A stretch of DNA of 64,000 nt from Leucoraja ocellata (taxonomy: Eukaryota), in assembly GCA_036785375.1 (NCBI GenBank), contig JAWMAR010000142.1, forward strand, positions 2,666,001-2,730,000, written 5' to 3'. A program made the position numbers and the translations under genes. Positions 6,560 through 61,869 of the stretch are shown piece after piece (within the stretch, counting starts at the first letter, position 1; each line of letters opens with the position of its first letter). Under the pieces are notes generated by a model. That model worked only from the letters and a program-made list of their open reading frames with translations. It ran no database searches and had not been told where the DNA came from.

Positions 6560-7620
6560 TTGGAACCACTTCAATTTGCCGATCGCCACAACAGGAGATG
6601 CTGTCTCACTTATTCTCCACCCTGCTCTGGACCATCTGGATAACTGGAATACATACATCAGGTTGCTGTGTCAACTACAGGTTGGCGTGTGACACAATCA
6701 ACTCCCCCAAACTCATTACCAAGCTCCAGGATCTGGGCCTCTATACCTCCCATTGCAACTTGCTTCTTGGCATCTCCACCACCAGATACCAATCAATGCA
6801 CATAGGTAACAACATCTCCTTCCTAAAGACCATCAACACAGGTGCATCACAAGACTGCATGCTGAGTCCCCTGCTCTACTTTCTTTACATCCAGCACCAT
6901 TTGGTTAAGTACAGCTCCAATGCCATTGGTAAGATCACCACGGTTGTTGGCCAAAACACGGCTGGTGATGAGTCAGTGCGTACAGGGGAGAGATAGAACA
7001 CCTGGTTGAATGATGCAGCAACAACAGCCTCTCATTCAACGTCAACAAAACCAAAGGTCCAATCGTTGATTTGAAAGGGGAAATTGCGAGCCAGTGCCAG
7101 TTTTCATTGGTGTGGCTACAGTGCAGAGCTAACAGCTTCACATTCCTGGGAGTTAACATCTTACGTTACATCATCAGGCAACATCTCTGGAGAACATGGA
7201 TAGGTGACGATTTGGGTTGTGACCCTTCTTCAGACTCGCAGTGTAGCAGTATCTTGTAGATGCTGGTTTATTAAAAAAGACATAAAGTACTGGAGTATCT
7301 CAGCCAGTCAAGCAGTGGCTCTGAAGAGCACAGTTAGGTGACGTTTTGGGTTAGGATCCTTGGTTGCATTATTGTCTGGTACAGCGATTCAAATGAAAGG
7401 AACACAAGAGGTTGCAGAGAGTGGTGGACTCAGCCTGATACATCTCGGGTACACCCCTCCTCTCTATCAAAAGCATCAACATGCGGTGCTGCCTCAAGAA
7501 GGTGCCCTCTCTCACAAGATCCCCACCATCTAGCTCATGCCCTCCTTGCTACTACTGTAGAGCAGGAGGTGCAGAAACCTGAATTCTCACTTGACCTGGT
7601 TTAGGAACAACTACTTTCCT
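6560..7620 (+). mobile_element. Degraded Rex1/Babar LINE RT fragment, interrupted by PLE-terminal fragments
   Basis: KLITKLQDLGL...INTGASQDCMLSPLLY resembles Rex1 RT; many stops and frameshifts. Confidence 0.7.
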
Positions 7621-7734: not shown

Positions 7735-8045
7735 AAGAAATACCAAAGATAGACACAAAATGCTGAAGTAACCCAGCAGGACAGACAGCATCTCTGGAGA
7801 GAAGGAATGGGTGATGTTTCGGGTCAAGACCCTTCTTCATCTCTAGACTTTGTCCACCCTTCTGCCAATTAAAGCCCCCTCACCTGTATCCACCTATCAC
7901 TTGCTAAACTTTCTCCCGCCCCAACCTGTTTCCCCTCTACTACAATCAATCTGAAACTTCACCTATCCATTTCCACCTGATCCGCTGTGTTACTCAAGAG
8001 CTTTGTGTTTTAGGCAAGGTGCTAGCATCTGTGGTTCTTTTATCT
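7735..8045. mobile_element. Degraded inverted pair of PLE terminal-repeat fragments
   Basis: GACACAAAATGCTG...GTTTCGGGTCAAGACCCTTCTTCA left arm and CCGCTGTGTTACTC...GCATCTG right arm, matching the family at 18209-18437. Confidence 0.6.
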
Positions 8046-10834
8046 TTTAAGATATACATTACGTTGTAGCTTATCAAAATACAACTGAACTGCAGCAGCA
8101 AGTTTATTTATCCCTATAGTTCAGTCATTCGATTTCATAATGATTTTATTTTCCGATCCTCTGTTCCCCTGGCCTCTGTCCAAGGAGCTCTTGAGATCAT
8201 CTTCAATAAAGGGCAAGGCAGTATATATTCCCCACATCAATGTGCAATGCCCAATACATTCCGTTACTTTGGAGGCTATTTAAATGTTATGCCATGGCCT
8301 ACTACAAATATGGATGCAGCAACATTTATCTGCCAATGTGCTCTATTTCCCCTTATAGCAATGCAAAGGACGGACATCAGGCAGATCAGATGTCTCACAT
8401 ATCATACTGTGGGCAGTCTGGATTTGGGAGGGATTATTTTTGCCACACACAGCCAGCAGAGGAGGGACTAGTGAATCACTGAGAAATTCTTTGCAAGAAT
8501 TGCTGTAGAAGGCATTGGAAATACTCCAGAGATTTGCAGAGAGAGCAGCTTTTGTGACAAGTCATCAACTCTGAAAGCATCTATCCCAATATGTGCCTCA
8601 GCTGATAGATGCACTGACGTTGATGTGCCCAACTGTTTAAGTTCACAGAATGCCAATTATGATCTGTGCTGAGTTATGTGATCCTATTTACATTCACAGT
8701 GAACATATTTATTGTCTTCAGCTTCCTTATTCCTGATTCCCATGCAAGTGCTTGGGCATGAAATGAATGCAAGGTCATGCTCTTCCTGAACAATCTTCAT
8801 GATCTCATTGTCCCCATTGTCCAAGTTCACCCTTCAAGAGCGAGGACTTGGGCAGCGTACAGGGTACCGGAGAGACACCACCACCAATGAACTTGGAACT
8901 GGAGGAGGAGGGGAGGGATACAAGGGATAAATTTCACACTATAAATAAACTTGGTCTAGCCTTCCTTGCTACAGAGCATGCAGATATTGTTGTAATGGAA
9001 ACATCAAAATACAACATTGCTTGGTAACTGGCATGCAACCACTCTAATCAGCACAGAGTGTTTATATTTCAATAAAAATTCTTCCATCACATTGATCTGA
9101 AAGGATGCTGTAACTCAATCACCAAACCAGGCTGACGGCCATCACAGTATTGTTCTCCTCATTGCCAAATAAACATGACGTCAAACCATCAATTTGCCCC
9201 GTGGCACACTGAAAGATCATATTGCAAAGTTTTAAAAATGCCAGTGTGGCAAGCAAACTTTGTGATTTGAAATGTGTCAGAGACTATTTATGTGTAATTT
9301 ACGGAGTGACCAAAAGGTATATGGATTTTTTATTCACCTCTCTGTGAATAATTCTGAGAAAGAACATGAAAACAGCAGAGAAGGGATGAACTTACAGTAA
9401 ATAAGGAAATCCTGAAAGATCAATACAGTCTATTCAAACAAGGAAGGGAGGACTGGCTGGTCCTAAATATAGATATAGCACATAAACAGGAATTATTTTT
9501 CTCCCAATTATTTATGGAGATGCATAACAAAGGAAGTCACAGGCTAAGAGTTTGTTTTGCTTTGTTTTGATTGTGCTACCTAGTTTCCTCCAACCTAGTT
9601 TCCTCCATCAATAAAAAAGATAGTTTCATTTCTCCTCTGTGAATACCATAATACTTTGGATAAATACTAGTCATGAAGGAGTCATTGCAGCTACTGTAAA
9701 ACTTATTATTTTATATCCCTGACTTCTGGCTTGCAGAGTAAAAATGAACAATGTCCAGTTTAGTTATTTCAGGAATTATTTATTTGCAGGCTGGAGAGCT
9801 TGTTGATAATTCCAAATTAAAGATATAGCAGGCTTGAAGATGAAAAGAACTGCCAGTTAATATAAAATCCATGACAGAGAATTGAAAGGGAATTAGAACT
9901 GAAAGAAAGAGATTTAATTTCTGAAGAGAAGGCTGACTTGATCATGGAATGCACTTCTGGAGTTGGTTTAAATAAATGACATCAACATTTAGGTCGAGGT
10001 TAGAGACTTGGGAAAATAATTGGGCTCGGGGAAATGGTATGCACATGGAATTTGGATTCTTGCCCACATGGTGGATAAACAGTAAAATGAATTATTTGGA
10101 CTGAGTGACAAATGTTGCAATTTCGATGCTCCTGTGCAGATACGGAACATTGAAGAGTAACATAAAATTGTTTGCCTTGAAATAAAGAACAATTATTCCA
10201 CAGAATAGAAGTGATTAGAGATTAGGAAACCCAACTACAAAGATTGTTAATAGAATGTACCTTACAAAACAAAATGTGAATTAATGTTCAGAGGATTTAA
10301 GCATAAATTGATGAACACAAGTTGCAAGACATTTACTAGATAAAACTACATCTAGAAAAATATAAAAACAATCTGGGCACATATTTACAGGAGAACCATT
10401 AGAAACGGTTAGGGACATTTTTTCTTTATCTATTACTTGTCGTTGATCATGCAATATAGCAAATCATTAATATTGGATTCAGGAAGTAGTACTTAGAATC
10501 AATCCTGTGGAAATAAAAAATAAAGCTGTCATTTACAATGTCATCACAGTTTGTCTCTTATGGGTTGTTGGCCTTTTTTTCTCACCTCCACCCATGTATC
10601 ATTGTTCAACAGGTCAAAGAGCAGTGAGGAAATAACACTGTTCATAATTGCTGATCTGAACTGCAAAGGCAAATCCATGAAGCTCATTGATCAGTTATCT
10701 GGCCATTTCCTGCCTCCTCCTGGTACGACAACATTGAGGTGATTAGTGCACAACGACACCGGTGGAGCAGGTCAAATACTCACGGTGAAGCCAGCAAAAA
10801 ACCATCCCCAATCAGCCCAGTCTGTAAAAATAAG

Positions 10835-10949
10835 CATTTAAGACGGAACTGCGGATGCTGGAAAATCGAAGGTACACAAAAATGCTGGAGAAACTCAGCG
10901 GGTGCAGCAGCTGCACCCGCTGAGTTTCTCCAGCATTTTTGTGTACCTT
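10835..10949. mobile_element. PLE-derived insertion containing a perfect 40-bp-arm palindrome, 12-bp TSD
   Basis: 10869-10908 is the exact reverse complement of 10910-10949; TGTAAAAATAAG at 10823-10834 and 10950-10961. Confidence 0.85.
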
Positions 10950-11744
10950 TGTAAAAATAAGTCCTTGCTTTACATCTCTATATCTCCTCTGGACAGAGTG
11001 GAATTCCACAAGAAATTTGCACCAAACACATTTCTGAAGTAACATGTTGACCATTAACGTTGAACGGTATTTTATTCCAAACAAAACACTGCTGTTAACT
11101 TTTCAGTTTGCAAACCGATACGCGTTTTCCAAGACAAACATCGCTCAGTCATTGCCAGCCGCCAACTAGCAACTCTGCAATGTATTTTGTTGTTCAAAAT
11201 CCTGAATTCTTCTCATGGCATCGCTGAAATCATCAAAAGCTTAATTCCTCACAACCTAGCTTCCTTCCTATTTTAGAATCCTACCTTGCTTTATCCATCT
11301 CTGCCCAAAGACAGCATACTCACTCACAATTCACTCACTCGGGCAAATCCTGCACTATTACCCTGCATCATTCATTGCCCCACTACACAGCACAGATGAA
11401 TATGGTGGGGAATCTTTATCAGCGCAACAAATATGTCGTTGGAGTGTGTGTCTCTCATTTTCAGTATGAAATGCAAATGTCAGTAGGGAGCAACAACTTA
11501 TTTTTCCGCTCAGGATTCAGGCCAAAATCCTGGACTAATCCATCCCTGTGGGATAACACTCAACACAGGAAAAACTTAGCGTCATCTCTGCAGGGTGGAT
11601 GTGCAATAAAAGAGGCTTTGGCGCTTCATCTACATTGAGAACTAATGTGAAGTTCAAATATAACAGCTTTGGTGGGGTGCTTTGGTGTGGAAGGCAGGTC
11701 TCATTATGTTGGGGTGATCCTTTTTGGACTTGACTTCAGCTGAC

Positions 11745-13120: not shown

Positions 13121-13306
13121 TTAGTTGATTGTGAGGTACAGTGAAAAGCTTTCGTGCTAACCAGTCAGCGGAAAGACAATAGATGAATACAATTGAGTCA
13201 TTTACAGTGCACAGATACATGATAAGGAAAGGTAAACCCAGTAAAGACCAATCTAACAAGGAACTGCAAATGCTGGAAAATCGAAGGTAGACAAAAGCTA
13301 GTTCTT

Positions 13307-13334
13307 CTGAAGAAGGGTCTTGACCCGAAACGTC
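13307..13334 (+). ncRNA. Minimal type I hammerhead ribozyme core in PLE terminal repeat
   Basis: CTGAAGA-A-GGGTC-TT-GACCC-GAAAC-GTC: complete CUGANGA/GAAA core, stem II and GUC cleavage triplet. Confidence 0.75.
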
Positions 13335-13964
13335 GCCTATTTCCTTCTCTCCATAGATGCTGCCTCACCCGCTGAGTTTCTCCAGCATTCTTGTCTACCA
13401 AGTAAAGTCCAAGGGTCACTAATGAGGTAGATAGTAGTTCAGGACTACTCTCTACTTATGGTAGGATGATTAATTGGAAAGGATTTGTAATGTTTTTTTG
13501 CAATGAAGAGCAAATTAACAAACTGTCTGAAAAACCCTGCAACAGCATTGATGTAAATGGAAAATTCAAATATTGATTACTTTAAGGCCCCTGTGGTAAA
13601 AACATAAACTTTCACCCACTCAGTGGAATAAAACAGATTGATCTACACAGTGCAACCTGCCTAAATAAATAATTTGCTAAGAATTTTCACACTTGGGTGC
13701 AAGTTATTATTAACAAAAAGAATATATTTATTTTAACTGGGTTGTAATTAGAAACCATTCACTTCTGCAATTCCCATAGTACGGGTGTCAGAGGTTATGG
13801 GGAGAAGGCAGGAGAATGGGGTTAGGAGGGAGCAATAGATCAGCCATGGTGGAGTACACTTGACAGGCTGAGTAGCCTAATTCTGCTTCTATCACTTTTG
13901 ATCTTATGACCTCTATACCCCACCAACCTTTATTTGTCGTTTTCTATGTAAACCCTACTACTTA

Positions 13965-15228: not shown

Positions 15229-15494
15229 AAAGGATGCATGGCCCATCTGTCTTCATAGGCGCACTCCAAATATACTGATTATACAAAGCATGCTGCGGAC
15301 AAGCTACAGTTTCTACACCCAATGTCAGGTGTTAGCACTGAACCTGTCACTACTGACATCTTTATCCCTGCATAATTAGCTCATGCTTCGTCTGCAACAG
15401 TACAACCTCCAATAAGCTCTGAACTAAACTATTATTGTTATTATTGCACTATTATTGTTTATTTTTTAATGTGTACATATGTTAGCGTGAGCTT

Positions 15495-15650
15495 ATACTG
15501 TATATACACACTCACATATATATATATATATATACACACACACATATACGCACACACACACACACACAGTTTTATATAATAATAGATATATTATACACGC
15601 ACACATACGTGCACATAAAAACAAACAATAATAGTGCAATAATAGCATAC

Positions 15651-15689
<39 letters not shown>

Positions 15690-15750
15690 CACACACATAT
15701 ATATATACACATATATGTATATGTGCAGGTATGTATGTATATATACATAA
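15495..15750. repeat. Compound (TA)n/(CA)n microsatellite inside a retroposon 3' UTR
   Basis: Direct reading of the sequence. Confidence 0.9.
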
Positions 15751-16700: not shown

Positions 16701-16998
16701 CACGGCAGCACAGCGGTAGAGTTGCTGCCTTACAGCACCTGAGATCCGGGTTCGATCCTGACTGTGGATGCTGTCTGTATGGAGTTTGTACGTTCTCCCC
16801 GTGACCACGTGGGTTTTCTCCGGGTGCTCCAGCTTCCTCCCACACTCCAAAGACGTACAGGTTTGAATGTTAATTGGCTTTGACAATTGTAAATTGTCCC
16901 TGATCTGTAGGGCAGTACTAGTGTATGGGGTGAGCACTGGTCAGTGTGGATTGGTGGGCCCAAGAGCCTGATTCATCACTGTATCTCTAAAGTCTAAA
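16701..16998 (+). mobile_element. HE1-like V-SINE (tRNA-derived head, V-domain, CR1-derived tail)
   Basis: A-box/B-box-like head (GGTTCGATCC), V-domain GGAGTTTGTACGTTCTCCCCGTG...TTCCTCCCACACTCCAAAGAC, tail TGTATCTCTAAA. Confidence 0.9.
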
Positions 16999-17137
16999 AT
17001 AACCATATATTGTGATGTAACTATACTTCCGCCAAAGACGGTAACGCAGGTTAGGCTCTTGACAATTTGGTGCCTCACCCAAGGGTCTATTTTAGGATGT
17101 ACTTTCTAGTAACAAGTCGAAACACATAGTAAGGCAG

Positions 17138-17438
17138 CACGGTGGCGCAGCGATAGTTGCTGGCTTACAGCACCAGTAGACCCACTTTCGATCCCGACTA
17201 CAGGTGCCGTCTGTACGGGGTTTGTACATTCTCTCTGTGACCGCACGGGTTTCCTCTGGGATCTTTGGCTTCCTCTCCCACTCCAAAGACGTGCAGGTTT
17301 GTAGGTTAATTGGCTTGGTACAAGAGTAAATTGTCCTTAGTGTGTGTAGTATAGTGTTAATGCGCGTGGATCGCTGGTCGGTGCGGACTCAGTGGGCCGA
17401 AAGGCCTGTTTCCGCGCTGTATCTCTAAACTAAACTAA
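17138..17438 (+). mobile_element. HE1-like V-SINE, full length
   Basis: CACGGTGGCGCAGCG head through GGCCTGTTTCCGCGCTGTATCT(CTAAA)n tail. Confidence 0.92.
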
Positions 17439-18208
17439 TCTGTTACACTGTTGCCGGAATGTCTCTGATCTGGGTGAAGTAAGGCTGGGTGTAACAAACC
17501 GTTCATTTAAATCCATTGCATGGGGGTAAAGGTTGAATGAGATTATTCCTGTTTTACAGCATGCCATCATCTGACCAACTAATTTAATTTCCCTCTGACC
17601 CTAAGCAAATCTGCCTTCCGCTAGAATCTCAGATCCGTCAAGAACAATCGCACAAGAACACTGTGACGCTGAGAGTGGGAAGGATTGTGTTACCATCTTT
17701 AAATAGGAAGATAAATTAATTCAAGGGAAGTTAAACTGATTGTAATATAAGCACTTCGGGCAGTATAGATAGCACCTTCTCCTTATTTTGATATGTCTCT
17801 TTTCTCAGAATTAGCCCAACTGTTCCTTGGAAGAGAAATTCCCTAATTGAAAACAATGATGTTGGATACAAAGACTTCTGTTGTATTGTGTCGCTGCTTC
17901 CACCATTCATCTTTTCACTGAGAACATTACCACAGAACACACCATCGGTAATAAATAGCCACAACACAACAGAACCAAGGTGCAGAGGTGTGGACTCTCT
18001 GATGTTGCAGTTCGTGATGCAGATATACTCTTTATAGCACTTTATTTCTCTGAGCAATATATTTATTCAGTTCAAATAATCCAGTTGCATTTTACAAAAT
18101 ATTTTATCTGATTCAGCATGAAGAAGAGTGGCTCTGAAATTGATTGACTTATGAAGCTTTGCTCTGTGGAAGATTCGTACACCACCATTGAACGAAAGGG
18201 CAAAATAT

Positions 18209-18437
18209 CTGTTGAAACAAGGAACTGCAGATGTTGATTTTTACCAAAGATAGACACAAACTACTGGAGTAACTCGGCAAGTCAGGCAGCGTCTCCGGAG
18301 AGAAAAGTTGGGTGACGTTTCAGGTCGGGACCTTCTTCAGTCTGAGGAAAGGTCCTGACCCAAAATGTCACCCAGTCTTTTTCTGCGGAGATGCTGCCTG
18401 ACGCACTGAGTTACTCCAGCACATTGTGCCTATCTTT
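18209..18437. mobile_element. Inverted-dimer PLE-derived element with back-to-back hammerhead motifs, 11-bp TSD
   Basis: Arms of about 100 bp are imperfect reverse complements; GGGCAAAATAT at 18198-18208 and 18438-18448. Confidence 0.85.
18314..18340 (-). ncRNA. Minimal hammerhead ribozyme core
   Basis: Minus strand reads CTGAAGA-AGGTC-CC-GACCT-GAAAC-GTC. Confidence 0.7.
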
Positions 18438-19669
18438 GGGCAAAATATTCGCCTATGCACTGGGTGCAAAATACTGTTGAAGATCGACCGAGAAATCTCT
18501 AACCTTGCATTGAGTAATGGTGGAATAAATGTCCTGGGTCTCACCTGTGGTCTTGCCTTTCATATTCTTCTGCCACAGAGATTAATGCTGCATGAATCAT
18601 GTGGTGATTACTTTGTGGAAAGCTGGTCCTCAGTTGGTGGAGGAATAATGGGCTGGACAGGGGCACACAGTAGAGGGATCTTGGAAATACGACGAACTGC
18701 AGATGCTAGCTCACAAAGAAAGAGACAAAGTGCTGGAGTAACTCAGTGGGTCAGGCAACATTGCTGGAGGACATGGGTAGACGATGTTAAAAGTGTATGT
18801 AAAACACTGCTATGGTACCATCGCAAACAAGGGAGTCCAAGTACAGTGGATAATATTTCTCTCAATGACAAATTCTGCTTGATGCATGTGAGTTACTTGT
18901 TGTAGTCTATGCTACAGGTTTACTTGTTAAAAGACTGGTTGCATTCAAAAGGGTCAGAGGCTAAGAAATAGGGACAATAGAAAGCAATGAGTTCACCCCA
19001 ACCATTCCACACAATGCGGCTGCTCTTTGCTCCAGCACCATGTTCCTGCCCTAGCCTCATGTCTGAGGATTCTTCTAATAACCAGAAAGCAAATTAATGG
19101 TTGAACCTTAATTGTCTCCAGTTGCGGAGATTTCCAAAGATTCACCACTTCATGAGTGAAGAAGCTTCTCCTAATTTCAGTCGTAAATGGACAGCCACTT
19201 ATTTTCAGTCTGACTCCTAGTTCCCAAAGTTTCAGTCATCCTCCCTGCAGCTAACTAGTGGAACCCTCATTGGCAGGAAGGGAGATGATAAGCATCATTT
19301 GAGCGCTAGTTTATTTATTGACATTGCTCTCCATTAAACAAAGTTGTTACTCTCGCCCTCCTATTTATGTGGGCCATAGTTTCCAATTTTACTCTGAGAA
19401 CATAACTATTTCAAGTGCATAAATACACACAATAACTTGGTCTCATATTGGCTTAAATTCAAATCGTTTTAAAGCACACCAACATAGGAATGCATTTGCT
19501 CCGAAAGCTTGTACTGTGCAAATACCAAACACTGATCAACATATGTCAGGCAAGGATAATAAGGGTTAGATGGCCATAAAAGGTAAATGGAGTTAAGATA
19601 TGGATTAGCTATGATCTAATGACCAGAAACGGGCTCCAGAACTCGCAATTTTACTCGTTTTGAGTTACA

Positions 19670-19932
19670 GCATGGAAACAACATGGACTGGCCACCCACC
19701 CAGTCCACGCCAACTCATACACTAGTTCTATGTTATCCCATGTTCCCATTCTACACACTAGAGGCAATCTTACAGAAGCCAATTAATAAAACCGCACGTC
19801 TGCAATGTGGGAGGAAACCGGAGTACCAGAGAGAATATACTAACTACACGCAGACAGCCCCCGAGGTCAGGATCGAACCCGGGTCCCTGGCATTGTGAGG
19901 CGGTTGATCTAACACTGCGCCAGTGTGCCGCT
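19670..19932 (-). mobile_element. HE1-like V-SINE (partly duplicated at 22561-22742)
   Basis: Reverse-strand SINE motifs GTGGGAGGAAACCGGAG and CAGGATCGAACCCGGGTC. Confidence 0.85.
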
Positions 19933-20581
19933 CTGTCTAACATACAAACAAAATCCTAAATGACTGAAGAAAGGGAAGGGTAGTCTTTACATTCACTTCA
20001 TCTCAAATTACTCTGTCAATAAAACAAAATTAATTCTGAGCCAGTGATGGAAAATAAATTCTATTCATCAACTACTTCCTCAGTCTGATGATTCAGAGAA
20101 GGAGACGAAATGGAAGGTTTATACACCGATGATATACTCTGCCCGCTGAGTTAATCCAGCATTTTGTGTCTATTTTCGATTCGGCAAAGTAAATTACTTG
20201 GAAAACAGTTTGGTAGCCAGCGCCCTTGATGATGTTCAAGCCGTCTCTTCTGAGAGAGCTTTCACATTCCCAGCTATTGCCGCGCCCAGTTTCTTCTGGC
20301 CGCCACAACCTTCATCATTCATTTCCAACGGTCAACAGGGATTTAAATAAAACAGCAAATAATAACAAAGGTAGTGCCTAGTTTTGTAAAATTCAATGAC
20401 CAAAAAGTATCTTATTTCTGAAAGTGAAACAAAAATGATAACAATCTTAATTACCATGGCTAAGCATGTTTATGCCAGTAACAGTTTTCTAAGAAATTGT
20501 AGATGCCGAATAGATTGCTGATTCAGTCATGTCCTAACAATGCCATGAAAGGGCGTTCCACAGTTGAACAAAAACAACAAT

Positions 20582-21796
20582 TTTCTTTTTTTTAATTTGT
20601 TTATTTGTTCCGAACAAGTAAAGACATAAATAGGAATAAATAACAACAACAAAATCGAAGTAGTCAAACAATTGGACATTCCAGGCAATATTTGCAAAGC
20701 AATGAAAAGCATAAAGCAAAATTTAAATGTCCAACACTTTTTCTTTACAAGCTCGAAAAGGAGTGAGAAGAAGAATAACTTATTTAATCTCACCCCTTCT
20801 CCCTAAACCCTTCTTCCAAATTTAATAATTAATTAATTAATAATAATAATACCCTAGACAATTTTTAGAGATGCATACAGACATGTATATACATACAACT
20901 GATATACATATACAAGTAATTTGTATGAAGTAACCAAAAAACATAAATAAATAATAAATAAAATAATAAATAAACATTAACCCCTGTTTGTCAACCATCC
21001 CCTTCATCCCTGTACCTTGTGAAAAAAAGTTTTTTGTATGTCATTTTGAACTGGTTCATATTTGGACATTGCTTTAACTCCACATTCAAACTGTTCCACA
21101 ATCCTACTCCACAGACCGAAATACAAAATGTTTTTCTGATCGTGCGGACTCTTTGTACCTTAAAATTAAATATTCTTCTTAAATTATAACCCCCCACTCG
21201 CTCATTGAATAATTTTTGTATATTTCCAGGTAAGTTTTTATTTTTGGCCCTAAACATTATCTGTGCTGTTTTAAATGCAACCAAATCTTCTAATTTTAAT
21301 AATTTTGACCGTAAGAATAATGGATTAGTGTGACCCAGATACCTGACATTGTGAATAATACGTATTGCTCTTTTTTGCAGAATAGTTAATGAATGTAGCG
21401 AACTTTTATAGTTATTGCCCCAGACTTCTGCACAGTAATTTAAATAGGGTAAGATTAGTGAACAGTAGAGAATGCGGAGTGATTTGTGATCCCGAACCTG
21501 CTTAACTTTGTGTAATACAGAAATGCTTTTTGACAGTTTGGATTGTACATGTTTAATGTGTGATTTCCAGCTGATTCTATCATCCATTATAACCCCAATA
21601 CATTTATTTTCATGAACTTGTTCAATTTTAACCCCATTTATCTTTATATTTGCTTGTGTAATTGATCTGCAATTACCAAATAACATTATTTTGGTTTTGC
21701 TCAAGTTTAAAGATATTTTGTTCCTGTCAAACCATGTTTTCAGTTTGCCCATTTCTTTTGTTATTTTGTCCAGTAGTTGTTTTAAATTCTCCCCAG
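20582..21796 (-). mobile_element. 5'-truncated L2/Crack-like non-LTR retrotransposon with 6-bp TSD
   Basis: AACAAT at 20576-20581 and 21797-21802; A-rich 3' tail with AATAAA on minus strand; absent from duplicate copy 2. Confidence 0.9.
20991..21752 (-). CDS. C-terminal part of LINE ORF2 (post-RT/thumb region), uninterrupted but 5'-truncated
   Basis: WFDRNKISLNLSKTKIMLF...ISWKSHI...LYCSLILPYLNYCAEVWG...LQKRAIRII...HTNPLF...GVGLWNSL; frame stays open up to the truncation point. Confidence 0.85.
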   Translation of the reverse strand: MGKLKTWFDRNKISLNLSKTKIMLFGNCRSITQANIKINGVKIEQVHENKCIGVIMDDRISWKSHIKHVQSKLSKSISVLHKVKQVRDHKSLRILYCSLILPYLNYCAEVWGNNYKSSLHSLTILQKRAIRIIHNVRYLGHTNPLFLRSKLLKLEDLVAFKTAQIMFRAKNKNLPGNIQKLFNERVGGYNLRRIFNFKVQRVRTIRKTFCISVCGVGLWNSLNVELKQCPNMNQFKMTYKKLFFTRYRDEGDG

Positions 21797-22560
21797 AACA
21801 ATGGAACCTGCTTCAAAAAGATATGACTTTATACAAAACCATATTTTTGTACTGATTGAAATTCAATATTGAAAAGGTTCAAATTTCTAGTTTTATGGAG
21901 TATTGCCATATTACTCAGAACCTCAAACCATTTCAGACTATTTTAGCCGATCAGACAGATAAGGAGGAAGTCAGCTAAATTAGCCTCACCCAAATTACAA
22001 TTTGAAGAAGTCACACTGACGAAATACTGTGCATTATTAAAATATTACAACAAGCATAGAAAATCAATTAAATGATTTTAATTGCAAAACAAAACCTGCT
22101 GGAGGAATTCAGCAGGTCTGGCAGCGTCCGTGGAGAAAAATGGAAAGATGATGTTTTGGGTCGGGACATTTCTTTCTCTCCATTTCCTTCCACAGGTGCT
22201 GCTTGGCCTTCTGAGTTCTTTCAGTAGATTTGTATTTTGCTCAAGATTCCAGCATCATTAGCCACTTCCAGCCCTGCTGAGTGCCCCCCACCCCCCATGG
22301 GCTGTCTCCCTCGGATGGTCACTTTAGTCTGTTTGAACTGATTTGACAATTTTACTGTTCTTTTTACAAACCATGTTCTCGGGGTATCTAAATCTAAATT
22401 TTATTAGTTATTTAAGTTATGACAATGGATGGAAGCTGCATACCAACTCTCGTTGTGCTTATGTGCAATGACAATAAAATATATTATTATTATTATTATT
22501 ATTCATGCAGATTCCAGCATCTGCGTTCTGTTGCATCTTCAACTGATTGTGTTTTTTTCC

Positions 22561-23487
22561 CAGAAGCCAATTAATAAAACCGCACGTCTGCAATGTGGGA
22601 GGAAACCGGAGCACCTGGAGACTTGCACGCGGTCACAGGGAGAATATATTATCTCCACGCAGACAGCACCCGAGGTCAGGATCGAACCCGGGTCCCTGGC
22701 ATTGTGAGGCGGTTGATCTAACACTGCGCCAGTGTGCCGCTCTGTCTAACATACAAACAAAATCCCAAATGTCTGAAGAAAGAGAAGGGTAGTCTTTACA
22801 TTCACTTCATCTCAAATTACTCTAAAATTAATTCTGAGCCAGTGATGGAAAATAAATTCTATTCATCAACTAGTTCCTCAGTCTGATGATTCAGAGAAGG
22901 AGACGAAATGGAAGGTTTATACACCGATGATATACTCTGCCCGCTGAGTTAATCCAGCATTTTGTGTCTATTTTCGATTCGGCAAAGTAAATTACTTGGA
23001 AAACAGTTTGGTAGCCAGCGCCCTTGATGATGTTCAAGCCGTCTCTTCTGAGAGAGCTTTCACATTCCCAGCTATTGCCGCGCCCAGTTTCTTCTGGCTG
23101 CCACAACCTTCATCATTCATTTCCAACGGTCAACAGGGATTTAAATAAAACAGCAAATAATAACAAAGGTAGTGCCTAGTTTTGTAAAATTCAATGACCA
23201 AAGTAACTTATTTCTGAAAGTGAAACAAAAATGATAACAATCTTAATTACCATGGCTAAGCATGTTTATGCCAGTAACAGTTTTCTAAGAAATTGTAGAT
23301 GTCGAATAGATTGCCGATTCAGTCATGTCCTAACAATGCCGTGAATGGGCGTTCCACAGTTGAACAAAAACATCAATGGAACCTTCTTAAAAAAGATATG
23401 ACTTTATACAAAACCATATTTTTGTACTGATTGAAATTCATTATTGAAAAGGTTCAAATTTCTAGTTTTATGGAGTATTGCCATATT
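22561..23487 (+). repeat. Local duplication copy 2 (empty LINE site)
   Basis: Reads ...TGAACAAAAACATCAATGGAACC... continuously at ~23361-23383. Confidence 0.95.
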
Positions 23488-24473: not shown

Positions 24474-24834
24474 TGTGGAAGTATATGCAGGGCTCTCGCT
24501 TAACTTTTTTTCCCTGTTGCCAGCCGGGCAACCTTGGCAGCTTTTTAGGTTGCCAAATCACAGTTTAGGTGGTCATTTAAGATGGCTTGCATGACGTGTG
24601 CGATAATGTGCTCGGATGAAGTCGGAATTATGGTCAATGAAGCATTCACATATTATTTCTGCTTCAAATAAAGTCACAAACTAAACATATTCACCAATCG
24701 AGACATGATATATACCACAATGACATGCAGCAAAATTACAATACGGTATCTCATCTCTTTTTACACATTGCAATGAATGCAATTTCTATTATCTCTTTCC
24801 ACTTCCAAACCAAAATATGGTTATTCAGCGTATG

Positions 24835-25280
24835 ATCAACCTCGGTGAGACCAAGCGCAGGCTTGGCGATCGCTTCGCACAACACCTCCACTCAGTTTGC
24901 AATAACCAACCTGATCTCCCGGTGGCCCAGCACTTCAACTCCCCCTCCCATTCCGAATCCGACCTTTCTGTCCTGGGCTTCCTCCATGGCCAGGGTGAGG
25001 CCCACCGCAAATTGGAGGAGCAGCACCTCATATTTTGCTTGGGTAGCTTACACCCCAGCGGTATGAACATTGGCTTCTCCAATTTCAGGTAGTCCTTGCT
25101 TTCTCCCTACTTCCCCTCCCATTCCCAGCTCTCCCACAGCCTACTGTCTCCGCCTCTTCCTTTCTTTTTCCCGCCCCCTCCACCCCTCCCGACATCAGTC
25201 TGAAGAAGGGTCTCGCCTATTTCCTTCGCTCCATAGATGCTGCCTCACCTGCTGAGTTTCTCCAACATTTTCGTCTACCC
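24835..25280 (+). mobile_element. Penelope-like element 3' fragment (GIY-YIG endonuclease C-terminus plus terminal repeat)
   Basis: GETKRRLGDRFAQHL...PVAQHFNSPSH...RKLEEQHLIFCLGSLHPSGMN, followed by CAGTCTGAAGAAGGGTCTC (hammerhead partly deleted). Confidence 0.92.
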
Positions 25281-25282
25281 AT

Positions 25283-26609: not shown

Positions 26610-27353
26610 CTAGACTAAGTGGGACCCGTTGGGTCCCATGTTCACACGGGAGGGCTGGTCCCCCAACGCAATATTCCACCTCTCCACCAATTCCAATATT
26701 GGTGGTCAGTGGAGGGAAGCTGGGGGCTTTCTGGAGCGCTAGTATGGGTGTTGTGGGCCAAAGGGACTGGTTACCAGAGGCCTAGTATGGACATTGTGGG
26801 CCGAATGGATTCTTGGGCTGGCAGATCAGTCACTCAGGTCTGGTGGGCTGGCAGCTCAGTCACTCAGGGCTGGTGGGCTGGCAGCTCAGTCACTCAGGGC
26901 TGTGGGCTGGCAGCTCAGTCACTCAGGGCTGTGGGCTGGCAGCACAGTCACTCAGGGCTAGTGAGCTGGCAGATCAGTCAGTCAGGGCTGGTGGGCTGGT
27001 AGATCTGTCACACAGGGCTGGTGGGCTGACAGTTCACTCACGGCTATTTGGCAGAGTGCAGGCCAACAATCTCAATTTCACAGCATCTCAGGCAGAGTGC
27101 AGGCCACCAAACTCAATTTTGCAGCATTTCAGGCAGAGCACAGGCCGCCAAATTCAATTTCACAGTATTTCAAGCAGTGCAGGCCACCAAATTCAATTTC
27201 ATTGAATTGTCATTAAGGGCTAACAAATCATTTATTGCAAGTACATCGCAGATTCACAGTTCAGTTGATTCACAGCTTAGAATCTTAGATCACTCCCTCG
27301 CGATCTTCCAGAGTGACTGACTCACGTCTAGGCATCAGGGGTTTTATAGTCCT

Positions 27354-27621: not shown

Positions 27622-29019
27622 TATAGCACTGCCTGTCGATAGTGGTAATGTCACATGTGTTGTGTGTGAGATGGAGGGTTTAGTGGGGAGGGAATGCAGG
27701 GGTTGTGTGTGTTAGAGAGAGTGAGTGCACAAGTGCACGTGCATGTGTGTTTATGAGTGAGAGGGAGAAAGAGAGAGTATGAATGCATGTGGGTGAACAA
27801 GAAGGTGAAGGAAACACATGAAGGCTGCAATATTTGCAGAATTAAATTGAGAGAAAAACAGATGAAGAAGAATATAAACACAGACATTCAGACCCATATA
27901 TCACATTCAGTGACAGATGCACTGATGCACTAAGACAACAATGTATGCACTAATACATTTATGTAAGAGGTCTAGTCAGACTGTATGACAGCTACAGATA
28001 ATGAGATATGGTAATGATTGCAGAGGTGTTTCTGCTATATCATCCTTCAACAATGCAAAGTTTATAAGATAATATTACCTGGAATAGTCAAATTCCACTG
28101 CTTTTAAAATTTAAAAACGCCCTATCCCAGAACACGCTTGGAACCTAAAGCTGCATTCTCGTTAAAAGAAAAATCAGCTCTCAAACCAGAAACAATTTTG
28201 TAACATCAGACAGCGAGATTGAGAACCTCTTATCTGAATGATAAGAACAGCTCACTGACAAATAGTCAGGTACTTAAGAGCTGGTTCTCTAAATATTTAA
28301 AATAGGTAATTAACAGATCATATATCCAAGTCGAATAATAACCAAACCCATCAAAAAAGATCCGCTTAAGCTTTGATTCAATCAGTCAGAAAGAAAAAAT
28401 CATTAAATTCATATAATTTTGAACAAGCGACCAGGAGCACATTCATCTCATTCTATTGTTTGATTGAATTTTATTGCTGCCCACAGAGTCTATTATTCAA
28501 TTCTGAGCACAATTGTAACATCGTACGAATAATAGATTACAGGATACTGCAATCTGTTGTGAGGTACCCCAGGAATGCTTCTGAATCCATCTTATTTTGT
28601 TCATCTGGTCCTTGAGGGATGAGAAGACCTTCTCTGGTGAGACTGTACAGAGTGGCTGTGCGTGCGAGTGTATGTGTGCCCACCTGTCAGTGTCAATACA
28701 TGTGTGGATGTAGACAGCCCTTTTAAACCTATCAATATTCAATTCCTAAACAAACCTATTGGTACCTGGAAGGTTTCAGATTGGCCATGCTTTAAGAGAT
28801 TCAGATTCAGATTCAATTTTAATTGTCATTGTCAGTGTACAGTACAGAGACAACGAAATGCATTTAGCATCTCCCTTGAAGAGCGACATAGCAAACGATT
28901 TGAATAAAAAAATAACAAGTGTCCGGAGGGGGGGGGGGGGTGGTGATTGGCAGTCACCGAGGTACGTTAAGCACGGTTTACATCCAGGCGACAGCTCTAC
29001 CATGATTGATTTATTCAAA

Positions 29020-29325
29020 GGCACAGCATAGAAACAGGCCCTTTAGCCCATCGAATCCATGCTGACCATCGATCACCTGTTCACTGTAGCTCTATATTAT
29101 CCCACATCGCATCACTATCTACACTAGGGGCAATTTACAGCAGTCAATTGACCTACAAACCTGCATGTCTTTGGATTGTGGGAAGAAAGCCGAGTACCTA
29201 GAGGAAACTCACACAGTCACAGGGAGAGCGTGCAAACGCCATACAGCCAACACCCAAGGTAATGATTGAACTCGGGAGTACGGATCTTTGAGGCAGCAGC
29301 TCTACCAGCTGTGCCGCTATGCCGC
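29020..29325 (-). mobile_element. HE1-like V-SINE, diverged
   Basis: GAAACAGGCCC tail, ACCTACAAACCTGCATGTCTTTGG core. Confidence 0.8.
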
Positions 29326-29589
29326 CCATAATTTTCCATATACTATGTCTTTCCTTGCTGTCTAACAAAGAACCAAGACAAGGTCAAATTATGGTAAAAA
29401 AGGAGGCTTTCCCCATCAACAGACATTTCAATGTCCAGGAACACATATTTTGGGTAGAAGACGCAAGGGAGATTCGAAGAAATACAGCTTTTCATTCAGT
29501 GTAGTTATTGTCCAAAATTAACTCCCGATTAGAGTAGGAATTTGAAATTATTGTGGTCTAAACTAGATATGTGGATGCAAGATATCATT

Positions 29590-29815
29590 TTAGTTTTTAA
29601 GTTTAGAGATACAGCATGGTAACTGGCCCTTCAGCTCAACGCATCCATGCCAACCAGAGATCCCCGCACACTTACACCATCCTGCACACAATAGGGACAA
29701 ATTTCAATTTTATCAAGCCAAGTAGCCTACACACCTGTTTGTCTTTGGAGTGTGGAAGGAAACCAGAGCTCCTGGAGAAAACCCACGCAGGTAACGGGGA
29801 GAACGTACAGACTCC
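29590..29815 (-). mobile_element. HE1-like V-SINE, 5'-truncated
   Basis: TTTAGAGATACAGC tail through GGGGAGAACGTACAGACTCC. Confidence 0.8.
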
Positions 29816-30057
29816 AAATCCAAACTCCAGAACTAGACATCTAAGATATATAAATTATCTTAGATATACAATTTCACAAAAGTGATCATTGTCTTGTGCA
29901 TTTTTCAAGGTGAGTGAAGTCGAAGACAGGTCTTCAACGTGAAAGGACGGGGTGTAAAGCCACTGCGTCTCCCAATTCTCCAAAAATAAACCTAGTTAAA
30001 AGGGAAAGCCATATTAATTTTCCTAAACTGTCTCCAATTAAAACAATCCTGTGGTGG

Positions 30058-30357
30058 CACGGTGGCGTAGCGGTAAAGCTACTGCCTTACAGCACCAGAG
30101 ATCCGGATTTGATCCTGACTACAAGTGCTGTCTGTACGGAGTTTGTATAGTCTCCCCGTGACCTGCGTGGGTTTTCTCCAAGATTGTCTGTTTCCTCCCA
30201 CACTCCAAAGACGTACAGGTTTGTAGGTTAATTGGCTTGGTATAAATGTAAAATAAATTGTCCCTAGTGTCTGTAGGGTAGTGTTAATGGGCGTCATTGC
30301 AAACTTGGTGGGCCGAAAGGCCTGTTTCGACCCTGTATCTCTCTAAACTAAACTAAA
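30058..30357 (+). mobile_element. HE1-like V-SINE, full length
   Basis: CACGGTGGCGTAGCGG head, V-domain, (CTAAA)n tail. Confidence 0.9.
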
Positions 30358-31736
30358 CGTTGCTGGTATAAGTCACTCTTCCTGTTTCTGAAACTTAGAT
30401 TGACACTAAAATCCCAACTTGTCCATGCAAACACCTCAATGGAGTTAGTAGCTTCTAGTTGTCTCCAGTAGTTGTCTCCAGCACGATTGTGCATATCAAC
30501 TAAATGCTTGCATTGCAAGATACTCCCTCAATATTGTGAATGCAGTGAAACATGACCCTCACTTCATGAGATATTCCCACAGCACAACATGCCCTTTAGC
30601 AACCACATCTATGTCAACATCAATTACACACCCACACCATCCCAGTTACCACCAATTGGTGTGTTGCTTTCTTCGCCTTGGCAATTCAAGTGATTGTCTT
30701 GCTTCTTCTTAAATGTTATGAGAGGATGCCACCTCTACCACCTACTCAGGCGGTGCTTTCCACTTTCCAACTGGCAGATAGGCAAAAAAAAAAACGTCCT
30801 CACATGCCCCGTAAACATTTCACTCCATATCCAAAATTATTGGGGTAAAATATTGAGAGGGCATTGGAGAAAGTTTTTTTTCACCTGTCGGCTGATTGGG
30901 AAATGGAAAACACTGTCTGAATGGGTGACAGAAGTGATCCTCTCATTTTTTACACCATTGTTATAGGGACAATGTTATTATTATCATTATCTGCCCTGCT
31001 TCTGCTCCCATAATGTGTAGGAAGGAACTCAGCAGGACAGGCAGCATGGGTGACGTTTTGGGTCGAGACACCATTCTCCAGGCTGATCAGGCCATGTATA
31101 AAGCCATATTTACTGTCGCTAATTAAACCCTTCTCTTCCAAATGGGAGGGAAATCCCATCCACCCGTGCTGGAGTCTGGAGCAACTAACAATCTGCTGGA
31201 GGAAATCAGTGGGTCGACCAGCATCTGTGGAGGGAAGTGAAAAGTCTTAGTTTTGGTTTGGGACCCTTCGTCTTGACTGGCCTTCTTTCCGTCCGTTGAT
31301 GAAGAATTTTGACTCGAAATGTCCACCGTCCATTTCCACCCACAATCGTCACGTTCTTCCAGCAGATTGTTGGTTCATCCCGAGATGTGTGACAGGGATG
31401 TAGAATTGTAGGATGCCAGATCTTTCCTTCGTAAAGGCATAACATGCAGCTGTGCCTGCATCTTTGCACGCACGGAGTTCCATAAATACTGATTTGTCTT
31501 TGTCCAATGTGAATTCATGGATGATCGGCTTTAACTGCCCATAACTGCAGCCTGACTTTACTAAACCATCCACAATGAAGCTGCTCGAGCCTGTGAATTC
31601 AAACCATGATGGTCTGTAAGTTTACAAACATAACCCTGACAAAATACTTCCTCCGCCAAAAAAAGCAAGAGTGGAAAAGCTAAGCCAGTTCTATTTCAAG
31701 CTGATTAGAGAATCATGATTTTTTTTTTAAAGCATA

Positions 31737-33133
31737 CAGTGCCCTCCATAATGTTTGGGACAGACCCATCATTTATTTATTTGCCTCTGTTCTCCATAAA
31801 TTGAAATTTGTAATAGAAAAAAATCACATGTGGTTAAAGTGTACATTGTCAGATTTTAATAAAGGCCATTTTTATCCATTTTGGTTTCATCATGTAGAAA
31901 TTACAGCAGTGTTTATACATAGTCCCCCCATTTCAGGGCACCATAATGTTTGGCACACAGCAATGTCATGTAAATGAAAGTAGCCATGTTTAGTATTTTG
32001 TTGCATATCATTTGCATGCAATGACTGCTTGAAATCTGCGATTCATGGACATCACCAGTTGCTGGGTGTCTTCTCTGGTGATGCTCTGCCATCTGCCATG
32101 GTATTGCAGCCATCTTTAGCTTATGGTTGTTTTGGGGTTAGTCCCCTTCAGTTTTCTCTTCAGCATATAAAGGGCATGCTCGATTGGGTTCAGATCGGTC
32201 GATTGACTTGGCCACTCAAGAATTGACCATTTTGCAGCTTTGAAAAACTCCTTTGTTGCTTTAGCAGTATGTTTGGGATCATTGTCTTACTGTAGATAGA
32301 ACCGCCGGCCAATGAGTTTGGAAGCATTTGTTTGAACTTGAGCAGAGAGGATGTGTCTATACATTTCAGAATTCATTATGCTGCTACCATCAGCAGTTGT
32401 ATCATCAATGAAGATAAGTGAGCCAGTACCTTCAGCAGCCATACATGCCCAGGCCATAACAACCCCACCAACGTGTTTCACAGGTGAGGTGGTATGCTTT
32501 GGATCTTGGGCAGTTCCTTCTCTCCTTTATAATTTGCTCTTGCCATCACTCTGATATAAGTTAATGTTCGTCTCATCTATCAGCAAGACCTTTTTCCAGA
32601 ACTGTGGTTGCTCTTTTAAGTACTTCTTGGCAAACTGTAACCTGACCATCCTATTTTTTGCGGCTAACCAGTGGTTTGCATCTTGCAGTGTAGCCTCTGT
32701 AATTCTGTTCATGAAGTCTTCTGCGGACAATGGTCATTGACAAATCCACATCTGAAGAGTGTTTCTGATCTGTCGGACAGGTGTTTGGGGATTTTTCTTT
32801 ATTATAGAGAGAATTCTTCTGTCATCAACTGTGGAGGTCTTCCTTGGCCTGCCATTCCTTTTGTGATTAGTAAGCTCACCAGTGCTCTCTTTCTTCTTAA
32901 TGATGTTCCAAATAGTTGATTTTTGGTAAAACTGAGGTTTGGCTGATGTCTCTAACAGTTTTATTCTTGTTTCTCAGTCTCATAATGGCTTCTTTGACTT
33001 TCATTGGCACAACTTTGGTCCTCATGTTGATGAACAGCAATAAAAGTTTCCAAAGGTGATGGAAAGACTGGAGAAAATACTAGGTGCTGAGAGCTCTCTT
33101 GTACCTGCATTAAGGAGGCAATTACACACACCT
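31737..33133 (-). mobile_element. Tc1/mariner transposon (same family as 1-885), transposase pseudogene, second TIR missing
   Basis: TA|CAGTGCCCTCCATAATGTTTGG; minus-strand peptides RLQFAKKYLKEQPQFWKKVLLIDETNINL and KHVGGVVMAWACMAAEGTG. Confidence 0.93.
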
Positions 33134-36965: not shown

Positions 36966-38290
36966 CACTGGCTGTCATGGAGGAAAGCGAGTGGCAGGGT
37001 ACCCAGATTCACTTCTGTTCATAAGTGAGACAACTGTCAAATGTGGGGCAGGAGTGGTCTCAAATTAGTAAAGAGAAAACCTCCATTGAATGGAGTAATG
37101 CCAGAGAAAGTACCATCATCTCCCAAGTTATCTCCAGGCCACAGTAAACACAGCTCCCTGATGCACGCACACACAAACTTGCATATAAACACATGCACCC
37201 TCTACACTGCCCTTTCCACCCACACATACACAGGGCAAGCCTCAAAATGCAGCATAATAAAGAAGCTCCTCAACTTCTTTAACTTCCTCCACTGCAGGTG
37301 AAGCAGTGAGGAACAGATGGGATCAACCAGACCAAAGGCAGCTGCTTTCTGTAAAACACATAACCAGCGTGAGGGTGACAATCCTTCTCCTCTTGACCAG
37401 AGGGATCAGTGAGATGCAAACAAACCCTTCAGCACAGATCAACATAAAATATCCCTGATAACCTCACCTACAATGTCTCAGTGTGGTTACTTTGACCTCT
37501 GTATTGTTCAACAGTGGGTGTCTGGAATGTGTTGCCAGAGGTGGTGGTGGAGGAAGATATGATAGTGGCTTTTAAGAGGCTTTCAGATAGGTACATGGAT
37601 AAGCAGGGAATGGAGGGATATGGATCATGTGCAGACGGGTGGGATTAGTTTATCATGGCATGGATATTGTGGGCCAAAGGGCCTCTTCCTGTGCTGTACT
37701 GTTCCATGTTCCAAGTGCAGGAAAGCAATTGCAGGAGCTCAACAGATGAGGTGAAGGGATGGTTTTTCTCCCTGCACTGTCCCAGAGGATTCCTGGAGTC
37801 TTTTCAGTCTATCCAGACTTGTACAAGCACGATGGTTTGCTCGTTGTCAGCCTGATTGAATGCAGGGATGATAAGGAGCACAGTGAAGGAGGCTATGCAG
37901 TTTAGTTTAGTTAAGTTTGGTTTATTGTCACGTGTACCGAGGTACAGTGATAAGCTTTTTTGTTGTGTGCCATCCAGTCACGGAAAGATTCTACATGATT
38001 ACAATCAAGCAGCCCACAGTGTAAAGAGAACAACGTTTAGGGCAAAATAAAGTCTAGTAAAGTCTGATTAAAGATAGTTTATGGGTCTCCAATGAGGTAG
38101 ATGGAAGGTCAGGGCCACTCTCTAGTTGATGATAACATGGTTAAGAGTCAGGAGACTAGAATCTAAAAAGGACACTAAGCGCTGGAGTAACTCAGCGGGT
38201 CAGGTCGCATGGATAGATTATGTTTCGGGTCGGGACGCTTCTGAAGAACAGTCTTGACCAGAAACGTCACCTATCGGAGAACATGGTTAT

Positions 38291-38904
38291 GGGCCTGTCC
38301 CACTGAGGCGACTTTTTAGGCGACTGCAGGAGACTATGCAGTCGCCACATGTTCGCGGGTGTTTGCCGGCAGTCGCCTTCATGGTCGTGAGGAGTTCCCT
38401 CCCCTCTTAAAGGACTTACCGTACACTGTGCTTTAGCCGTCTTAATTACAGCGCCAACCTTCCTGTACATCACGGTGCATGTCTGTATCCCTTGGCTTTA
38501 CACAGTGTAAATTCCACTCAGACAGTGCTCTCCCAGCTTGCCCTGTCCCCCGCCCACATAACGGGCTGGTGANNNNNNNNNNNNNNNNNNNNNNNNNNNN
38601 NNNNNNNNNNNNNNNNNNNNNNNNNNNNNNNNNNNNNNNNNNNNNNNNNNNNNNNNNNNNNNNNNNNNNNNNNNNNNNNNNNNNNNNNNNNNNNNNNNNN
38701 NNNNNNNNNNNNNNNNNNNNNNNNNNNNNNNNNNNNNNNNNNNNNNNNNNNNNNNNNNNNNNNNNNNNNNNNNNNNNNNNNNNNNNNNNNNNNNNNNNNN
38801 NNNNNNNNNNNNNNNNNNNNNNNNNNNGCAGTTTTTCAGGCGACTGCCGACAACTTGACTGTAGCCGGCAGTCGCCTGAAAATTCGCCTAAGTGGAACAG
38901 ACCC
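38291..38904. mobile_element. PIF/Harbinger-like MITE spanning an assembly gap
   Basis: Imperfect TIRs GGGCCTGTCCCACTGAGGCGA / TCGCCTAAGTGGAACAGACCC; subterminal GGCGACTG repeats; TSD not recognisable. Confidence 0.65.
38573..38827. other. Assembly gap (N run)
   Basis: Ns in the sequence. Confidence 1.
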
Positions 38905-38971
38905 AAAAGAGACGTTTCAGGTCTGGACCCTAATGAAGAACAGTCTCGACCCAGAACATCACCTATCAAGT

Positions 38972-38999
38972 CTGAAGAAGGGTCCCAACCCGAAACGTC
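38972..38999 (+). ncRNA. Minimal hammerhead ribozyme core
   Basis: CTGAAGA-A-GGGT-CCCA-ACCC-GAAAC-GTC. Confidence 0.7.
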
Positions 39000-61700: not shown

Positions 61701-61869
61701 TCAACATGTACATACTCATGTCACCACCTGTTTGAGCTGATGTGCTAAAGTTCCAAGCCACATTAAAACAACAAAAAGTATGAAAAAAACACTGCAAGAT
61801 CAGTAACATAAAACTAATATGTGTAGGAAGGAACTGCAGATGCAGATGTTGAAAAAATAAGTTGAATTA

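Follow-up and report, generated by a model that had tools for sequence, protein, structure and literature searches.

A hammerhead-bearing palindrome in Leucoraja ocellata is probably a very short head-to-head insertion of Penelope-like element ends

The palindrome at 18.2 kb in the window (the whole 64,000-nucleotide stretch of Leucoraja ocellata DNA analysed here) carries hammerhead motifs on both strands, and it raises the question of whether it propagates as a hairpin RNA or is a by-product of the integration of Penelope-like elements (PLEs). The inverted repeat spans positions 18209-18437 and is centred on T18341. Its arms are Watson-Crick complementary at 76/95 aligned positions and differ by 15 transitions, 4 transversions and one 1-nt indel. 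Folding gave an MFE of -149.4 kcal/mol (z -16.7), and an equally good fold was obtained in 0/200 shuffles. The insert is flanked by an exact 11-bp target-site duplication (left copy 18198-18208, right copy 18438-18448), the score of which (11) was reached by 0/391 random pairs from the window. The first-pass annotation had reported this inverted repeat and duplication, with hammerheads back to back on both strands, and these observations were confirmed. The insert is asymmetric, since a 37-nt PLE 'tail' (18209-18245, minus strand) is confined to the left arm according to the arm alignment. The tail-bearing arm (18209-18340, minus strand) is a PLE terminal unit in antisense (nhmmer E 9e-31, the arm having been in the seed), and it meets the tail-less arm (18342-18437, plus strand; profile search and alignment) at the central junction TCAG-T-CTGA (18337-18345); the GG that follows the tail-less arm is common to arm and duplication. 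Both ends of the insert are present in the related organisms B and D, and its flanks are about 4% diverged in organism D (8/191 and 10/241), so the 18.2-kb copy is old. No empty-site joint was seen among the 15 listed of 336 joints in related-organism reads.

The hammerhead core on the minus strand (18340-18314) retains the CUGANGA, GAAA and GUC boxes of a minimal type I motif. It had been described as intact, which holds for these boxes but not for the helices: helix II is closed by A-U, with G10.1-C11.1 absent, and helix I begins with an A.A mismatch, the centre base being available to one strand only. The plus-strand copy (18342-18369) is degenerate, with GAAA changed to AAAA (G12 to A at a CpG) and C15.2 to U; the closing change of the minus helix II and the plus-strand loss of G12 strike one and the same CpG. 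As judged by eye, helix I of native copies has at most 2 contiguous pairs and differs from that of a canonical type I hammerhead, with its 6-bp helix I and loop contacts. For either strand of the complete 229-nt RNA, the predicted pairing probability of helix II is 0.0. Neither motif is predicted to fold within the hairpin, where both, already damaged, would be buried in duplex. Minimal PLE hammerheads have been reported to remain uncleaved as monomers and to require same-strand tandem copies (Cervera and de la Peña, 2014; PMC4209133), and the proposed hairpin RNA of retrozyme type, carrying functional ribozymes of either polarity, is not supported. The metazoan PLE hammerheads of that study and the motifs at 18.2 kb share CUGANGA, helix II, GAAA, a palindromic 15.2-16.2 and a short helix I, and are mostly dispersed there as they are here. 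However, the dual motifs reported on opposite strands lie 100-700 bp apart and probably derive from truncated PLEs (PMC4209133), while the 18.2-kb cores are one base apart and each is base-paired to the arm of the other. The text of that study available to us names no cartilaginous fish. Further core motifs occur in the window at 13307, 38972, 58372 and 61963. A search of the window against Rfam returned no matching hammerhead family at E up to 1, and it gave sub-threshold miRNA-type matches at 10.9 and 22.1 kb; inserts of this kind will probably be mistaken for MITEs or miRNA hairpins in annotations.

The identity of the arms was addressed with a profile of the terminal unit, built with 16 seeds drawn from the window itself. 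The window contained 42 matches, against no match when it was reversed, and the 37 with E below 0.01 form 23 clusters, amounting to 4.7% of the 64-kb window. At 24724-25281 (plus strand) the unit comes after the C-terminal end of a PLE endonuclease (tblastn E 2e-17 to the C-terminus of P0011), its stop and a UTR rich in pyrimidines, an arrangement that links it to a coding PLE. A broken PLE reverse-transcriptase (RT) remnant, recognized by protein matches and tblastn at 57539-58792 (minus strand), is interrupted by a unit at 58276-58375. Its part at 58.4-58.8 kb shows 78%, 74% and 74% identity to Mobula, Heterodontus and Chiloscyllium proteins, and the longer of the matching proteins bear RT and GIY-YIG Pfam domains; these matches make a cartilaginous fish the most likely host. 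The terminal unit thus belongs to an element coding for RT together with a GIY-YIG endonuclease at the C-terminus, and each 18.2-kb arm is a terminal repeat unit of such a PLE, comprising hammerhead and tail end. No full-length PLE is present within the 64-kb window, and a Pfam search of 5 ORF fragments returned nothing at the cut-off; about five PLE ORF remnants were counted in the window versus the 23 unit clusters. The 58.3-kb unit was considered as the pLTR of the adjacent RT remnant and rejected, as the ORF resumes beyond it. The possibility that the unit codes for an ORF N-terminus was also found unconvincing, with three matches of 12-19 residues when 120 PLE proteins were compared with 7 arms by tblastn.

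The family is abundant, with 48,000-53,000 contigs per DNA run recruited on the arms at 80% likeness. In metagenome, viral and prokaryote genome scans the junction pattern gave 0 matches, and a 20-nt arm-stretch pattern gave none in viral or prokaryote genomes and one in metagenomes (L001), which was taken as a chance match since the 20 nt alone agree and the flanks are unrelated. Some units lie inside older PLE remnants (46079-46197 in an endonuclease, 58276-58375 in the RT), and a unit at 61815-61870 lies 7 nt from an older tail remnant, which suggests that PLE units prefer their own AT-rich sequence as target.

Several sister inserts share parts of the 18.2-kb architecture. A young insert at 10823-10961 has a 40/40 palindrome centred on 10909, a 34-nt left tail and an exact 12-bp duplication (alignment and null scoring). 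It had been listed as a related insert with a 12-bp duplication, and the duplication proved exact, but the centre is a different one (GC-T-GC, a micro-palindrome of the template) and the insert lacks a hammerhead. The inverted pair at 61859-62270 pairs at 70/94 positions and carries a right tail, and a tail remnant lies directly outside its left duplication. It had been said to repeat the 18.2-kb architecture with a 12-bp duplication; the inverted pair and a real duplication were borne out, but the latter is an exact 11 bp and the arms are separated by a 154-nt foreign spacer, which matches another repeat (3 other matches in the window). The insert at 62309-62461 combines a 15-nt left arm, a TCAG-T-CTGA centre, a deleted hammerhead and a right tail. 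Its duplication, previously given as about 16 bp, is real and exact over 13 bp, and reaches 16-17 bp when one G indel is allowed and an ACA that also belongs to the end of the element is included. At 13240-13412, an inverted pair with a left tail and a 12-bp duplication with 1 mismatch has barely overlapping arms and forms no long hairpin. A tail-less monomer at 46079-46197 (plus strand) starts from the hammerhead core and has a 13-bp duplication with 1 mismatch; it is the unit inside the older PLE endonuclease remnant mentioned above.

The remaining pairs appear older or more complex. Old inverted pairs are found at 22082-22262 (asymmetric, right tail), 31167-31374 (left tail, gap of about 25 nt) and 56260-56440 (centre TCAG-A-CTGA, right tail). 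The degraded pairs annotated near these places are thus indeed inverted pairs, but no duplication was found at any of the three, and the gap between the arms near 7.7 kb turned out to be a PLE 3' UTR. The latter locus (7741-8050) consists of an antisense arm without tail that adjoins a longer sense copy having both UTR and tail, and may represent two events. A complex cluster of inverted and tandem units at 38163-39100 is split by an element with terminal inverted repeats (TIRs) and an assembly gap. The duplication scores at 10.8, 61.9 and 62.3 kb (12, 12 and 13) exceed all 391 null pairs. The 13.3-kb duplication scores 10, a value matched by 3/391 null pairs, and a 9-bp duplication with a mismatch at 7735/8049 scores 7 and is equalled or beaten by 56/391. 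In this first search, which covered 16 loci, no repeat was found at 8 and the scores lay within the null at 3. Among 20 further loci searched, one duplication was above the null (46.1 kb, score 11; 4/982 null pairs reach 11 or more). Other arrangements were also noted: the element at 38287-38908, with an assembly gap and TIRs of 41-44 bp (84-85%), is a true MITE-like insert inside the PLE unit cluster; a tail-bearing antisense unit at 31013-31082 has been shortened by two internal deletions, apparently at short repeats; and two units at 7174-7361 form a head-to-tail partial tandem on the minus strand.

The junctions and tails are informative regarding the way in which the pairs arose. A single tail per pair was scored by eye in 8/8 pairs (p 0.004 if tails are independent and 50:50), with 56.3 and 62.3 kb omitted for their too short left arms and 61.9 kb counted only if its duplication is accepted. 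The first-pass annotation had proposed to separate a propagating family from independent products by whether the centre is shared. The 18341 centre turns up again at 62.3 and 56.3 kb, may do so at 61.9 kb, and is also found in paralogous contigs (2 clear, X1 record 5 and X4 record 21, and 1 borderline, X4 record 22, among the 24 listed of about 156,000 pieces), so that the junctions are not all different. Differing junctions are present at 10.8, 13.3, 22.1, 31.2 and 38.2 kb and more were seen among recruited contigs, the spectrum in the window being that of about 10 loci in 64 kb. Among arms with E below 1e-4, 21/34 stop at model positions 2-8 without upstream UTR, the presence of which was judged by a proxy, the pyrimidine fraction. 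In the UTR-linked copy, TCAG-T-CTGA natively forms a 4-1-4 palindrome immediately 5' of the core (25195-25203), the longest odd palindrome of that copy; both clean centres (18.2 and 10.8 kb) coincide with odd micro-palindromes of the template. Two arms that stop at this hotspot would therefore yield the identical junction regardless of ancestry. Read on the tail-first strand, two loci have T as their centre base (18.2 and 56.3 kb) and two have A (10.8 kb, and 62.3 kb with the same junction as 18.2 kb); these are 4 loci in all, and the T at 18.2 kb could have arisen by a single transversion. The proposed check is consequently confounded: a common centre is no proof of a propagating family, because single arms also stop there, the micro-palindrome is natural and the middle base varies.

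The relationships among arms point in the same direction as the varied junctions. In a tree of the 24 arms, out of 31, that are at least 75 nt long, the two arms of a locus agree in subfamily, left arms and right arms do not form clades of their own, and L62a/R62a and L31/R31 are sisters. The tree is weak, with 1/21 inner branches well supported, and L18 and R18 fall in no firm position and are not sisters. Within older pairs, the rank of the mate is no better than 1-2, 4-8 and worse in a set of about 30 arms. Both 18.2-kb arms have the rare variant C18296/G18387, where about 80-90% of family reads have T/A. Assembly of the pairs insertion by insertion is favoured because the arms match by subfamily of the locus without a left or right clade and because junctions differ; it is also supported by the 10.8-kb insert lacking a hammerhead, the 13.3-kb insert lacking a hairpin and the 46.1-kb monomer.

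We thus believe that the 18.2-kb insert is a very short endonuclease-positive (EN+) PLE insertion, assembled anew at each insertion event (probability roughly 0.8). The earlier reading of these inserts as inverted PLE terminal-repeat dimers made by target-primed retrotransposition is accordingly upheld, in its version of stereotyped short integration products. The anatomy observed consists of arms joined at their 5' ends, one tail, a long duplication containing A/T, varied junctions and a stop hotspot at the upstream edge of the hammerhead. It would arise if the PLE protein nicked both target strands 11-13 bp apart and reverse transcription were primed from both target ends, at an outer start site that includes the tail and an inner one that does not. 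Both cDNAs would stop after about 100-135 nt, mostly at the hammerhead edge, which is probably the RNA 5' end. The two cDNA 3' ends would then be joined via a short odd palindrome, with mismatch repair at the centre leaving A or T, and the hairpin and the hammerheads in two polarities would be by-products that decay neutrally. The term 'twin priming' comes from work on L1. For the two-ended step with joining of cDNA ends, we would put the chances slightly below even.

Parts of this scheme have a biochemical precedent. The purified PLE protein of an anole cuts and extends both strands, is predicted to form a dimer, cuts AT-rich DNA and uses two internal RT start sites that bound the tail, with reverse transcription beginning inside the ORF, 111-118 nt from its start (Frangieh et al., 2024; PMC11167929). 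This element, Poseidon of Anolis carolinensis, resembles the window inserts in its hammerhead, located about 110-120 nt upstream of the two tail-bounding start sites, in its AT-rich targets and in the extension of both strands in vitro. In the available text, however, its account mentions neither the joining of two cDNAs nor short palindromic products, and we infer the joining here. Moreover, Schostak et al. (2008; PMC2377424) located the transcript start within the upstream repeat, and in Drosophila virilis the Penelope intron ends at the 5' end of helix I (PMC4209133). In the window the UTR ends in a pyrimidine tract and CAG directly before the hammerhead (25170-25199, also 46620-46650 and 63950-63980), resembling a splice acceptor, and this could account for the 5' stop hotspot.

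Head-to-head PLE ends are already known as a class, of which the 18.2-kb insert is a very compact member. Adjacent inverted pLTRs with a 31-bp tail on one of them, duplications of 8-10 bp and palindromes at head-to-head junctions have been described (Arkhipova et al., 2013; PMC3846280), and these are regarded as general PLE features (Craig et al., 2021; PMC8557442). The window inserts share with these EN+ insertions the head-to-head units, the junction palindromes, the 30-40 bp tail at one end, the long duplications, the partial tandems and the captured spacers, and the 18.2-kb copy likewise has a minimal type I hammerhead in the pLTR, a head-to-head inverted 5'-truncated copy and a one-sided tail. 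They differ in consisting of terminal units alone (115-230 bp), with no ORF in between, in their very high density of about 10 pairs in 64 kb and in duplications of 11-13 bp versus 8-10 bp (PMC3846280). The origin of the head-to-head inverted ends of PLEs has been called undefined (PMC8557442), and they have been held to be explicable only with an antisense template (PMC3846280). Two-ended priming would yield such ends from sense RNA, and the inserts, each recording a start site, a stop site, a junction and a centre base, provide a natural experiment on the mechanism. We found no published account of the two-ended reading with joined cDNAs, or of short PLE palindromes in cartilaginous fish, in a search of mainly the open literature.

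Regarding the step that joins the arms, fold-back self-priming of one strand, either a single cDNA or, as proposed by Arkhipova et al. (2013), an antisense RNA, with the endonuclease resolving the ends, competes with two-ended priming alone and appears about as likely, though also short of even odds. Palindromes at head-to-head junctions have been interpreted in this way in print (PMC3846280), and self-priming would give arms identical at birth, in agreement with the 40/40 palindrome at 10.8 kb and the rare variant shared by the 18.2-kb arms. The centre base is less easily accommodated: a single cDNA fold-back, like a single master copy, would fix it, and predicts A on the tail-first strand, where T is found in 2/4 loci, although the antisense-template version is compatible with these data. 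In addition, the 2-1-2 palindrome at 10.8 kb would seem too short for an intramolecular hairpin, and neither the non-overlapping arms at 13.3 kb nor the asymmetric arms at 22.1 kb are simple fold-backs. The two mechanisms could be told apart by counting such inserts throughout the genome of a shark or ray. A different matter is the RNA that is copied, for which a SINE-like, non-autonomous PLE monomer starting at the hammerhead edge rivals run-off from the 5' end of a full PLE transcript, the dimers still being made at insertion. Such a monomer would fit the 23 clusters and 4.7% of the window as opposed to about five ORF remnants, the 21/34 arms that start at one edge, the duplication-flanked monomer at 46.1 kb and the 48,000-53,000 contigs per DNA run. 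The same clustering is nevertheless expected should the full transcript begin within the terminal repeat (PMC2377424) and reverse transcription begin internally, and no discrete RNA end was seen among the places listed for the oligo-dT run of organism B; we consider the SINE-like monomer possible but rather unlikely.

A stronger departure from assembly at insertion is a non-autonomous family in which a palindromic master gives rise to a long hairpin transcript that the PLE machinery re-inserts in full. In its most specific form, the subset centred on TCAG-W-CTGA would be a self-propagating hairpin RNA of about 230 nt in cartilaginous fish, with PLE start sites on both arms and copied whole by the PLE protein; if true, these palindromes would be a retro-MITE. 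The recurrence of one centre at several window loci and in paralogous contigs, the strong predicted hairpin and the ability of PLE terminal repeats to mobilise other sequence in trans (PMC3846280) speak for it. On the other hand, at least four subfamilies each form arm-matched pairs without a left or right clade, the centre base varies among loci, neither hammerhead folds in the predicted hairpin, and sister inserts with the same ends lack either the hammerhead or the hairpin. The mismatches between the 18.2-kb arms are non-compensatory and look neutral: those tolerated as G-U number 8 on the plus and 7 on the minus strand, with no strand bias, and at 61.9 kb the numbers are 9 and 10 on the two strands. 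Furthermore, the oligo-dT run of organism B (5% read) contained 31,407 family reads in about equal numbers of both orientations, but depth was about 0 in the unique flanks of the 18.2-kb locus, and no site of many starts or ends was seen among the places listed, in a library blind to small and circular RNA. We therefore regard the hairpin family as improbable, both in general and for the TCAG-W-CTGA subset. Animal non-LTR retrozymes (Cervera and de la Peña, 2020, PMC7229834; Li et al., 2026, preprint 10.64898/2026.07.22.740005; see also PMC6155905) are similarly short, non-coding and PLE-related, with a type I hammerhead and long duplications. They are, however, described as head-to-tail arrays in which two or more successive units hold a complete hammerhead and from which circular RNAs are made, whereas the 18.2-kb units are head-to-head with minimal, damaged motifs, one core lacking G12. 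As for a cut-and-paste MITE derived from PLE ends, which the short, non-coding, palindromic and abundant inserts might evoke, the duplications measure 11, 11, 12, 12 and 13 bp and are unrelated in sequence, instead of short and fixed, the two ends do not form inverted repeats with one another, given that the tail occurs at one only and TIRs do not reach both ends, and monomers and tandems have identical ends. This origin is hardly credible.

A separate signal was observed among the RNA reads. In run X24, a joint from 18422 to 18389 corresponds to a 66-nt head-to-tail repeat (438+667 RNA reads, 187 starts, two main variants) that comprises the middle of the unit, from GAAAC to the end of the CCAGCAC stretch. 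The joint also occurs in DNA, in one contig each of X1 and X4, and the repeat is probably a tandem inside one abundant polyA transcript. Its interpretation as a circle junction was set aside, given the oligo-dT library, the presence of the joint in DNA contigs and the absence of CUGANGA from the 66-nt unit.

Additional repeats were noted in the window. A local duplication of about 810 bp (19773-20581 and 22561-23377; 94%, with a 300-bp core at 99%) contains the 3' half of the unit, to which a divergent CUGAUGA...GAAA motif is fused. A 273-aa frame between its two copies (20991-21812, minus strand), which we take to be LINE-like, gave no Pfam match at the cut-off. Two inverted copies of a longer repeat at 3-828 and 31801-32633 are 92-94% alike and probably represent LINE fragments. 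Finally, further abundant SINE-like families (D3, D8-D10, D13-D18) are present at 16718-17438, 29014-30354, 47368-47573, 52538-52845 and elsewhere, together with an (AT)/(AC) microsatellite with spurious Rfam miRNA matches at 15470-15750 and a 30-bp tandem repeat with 7 overlapping matches at 26784-27080.
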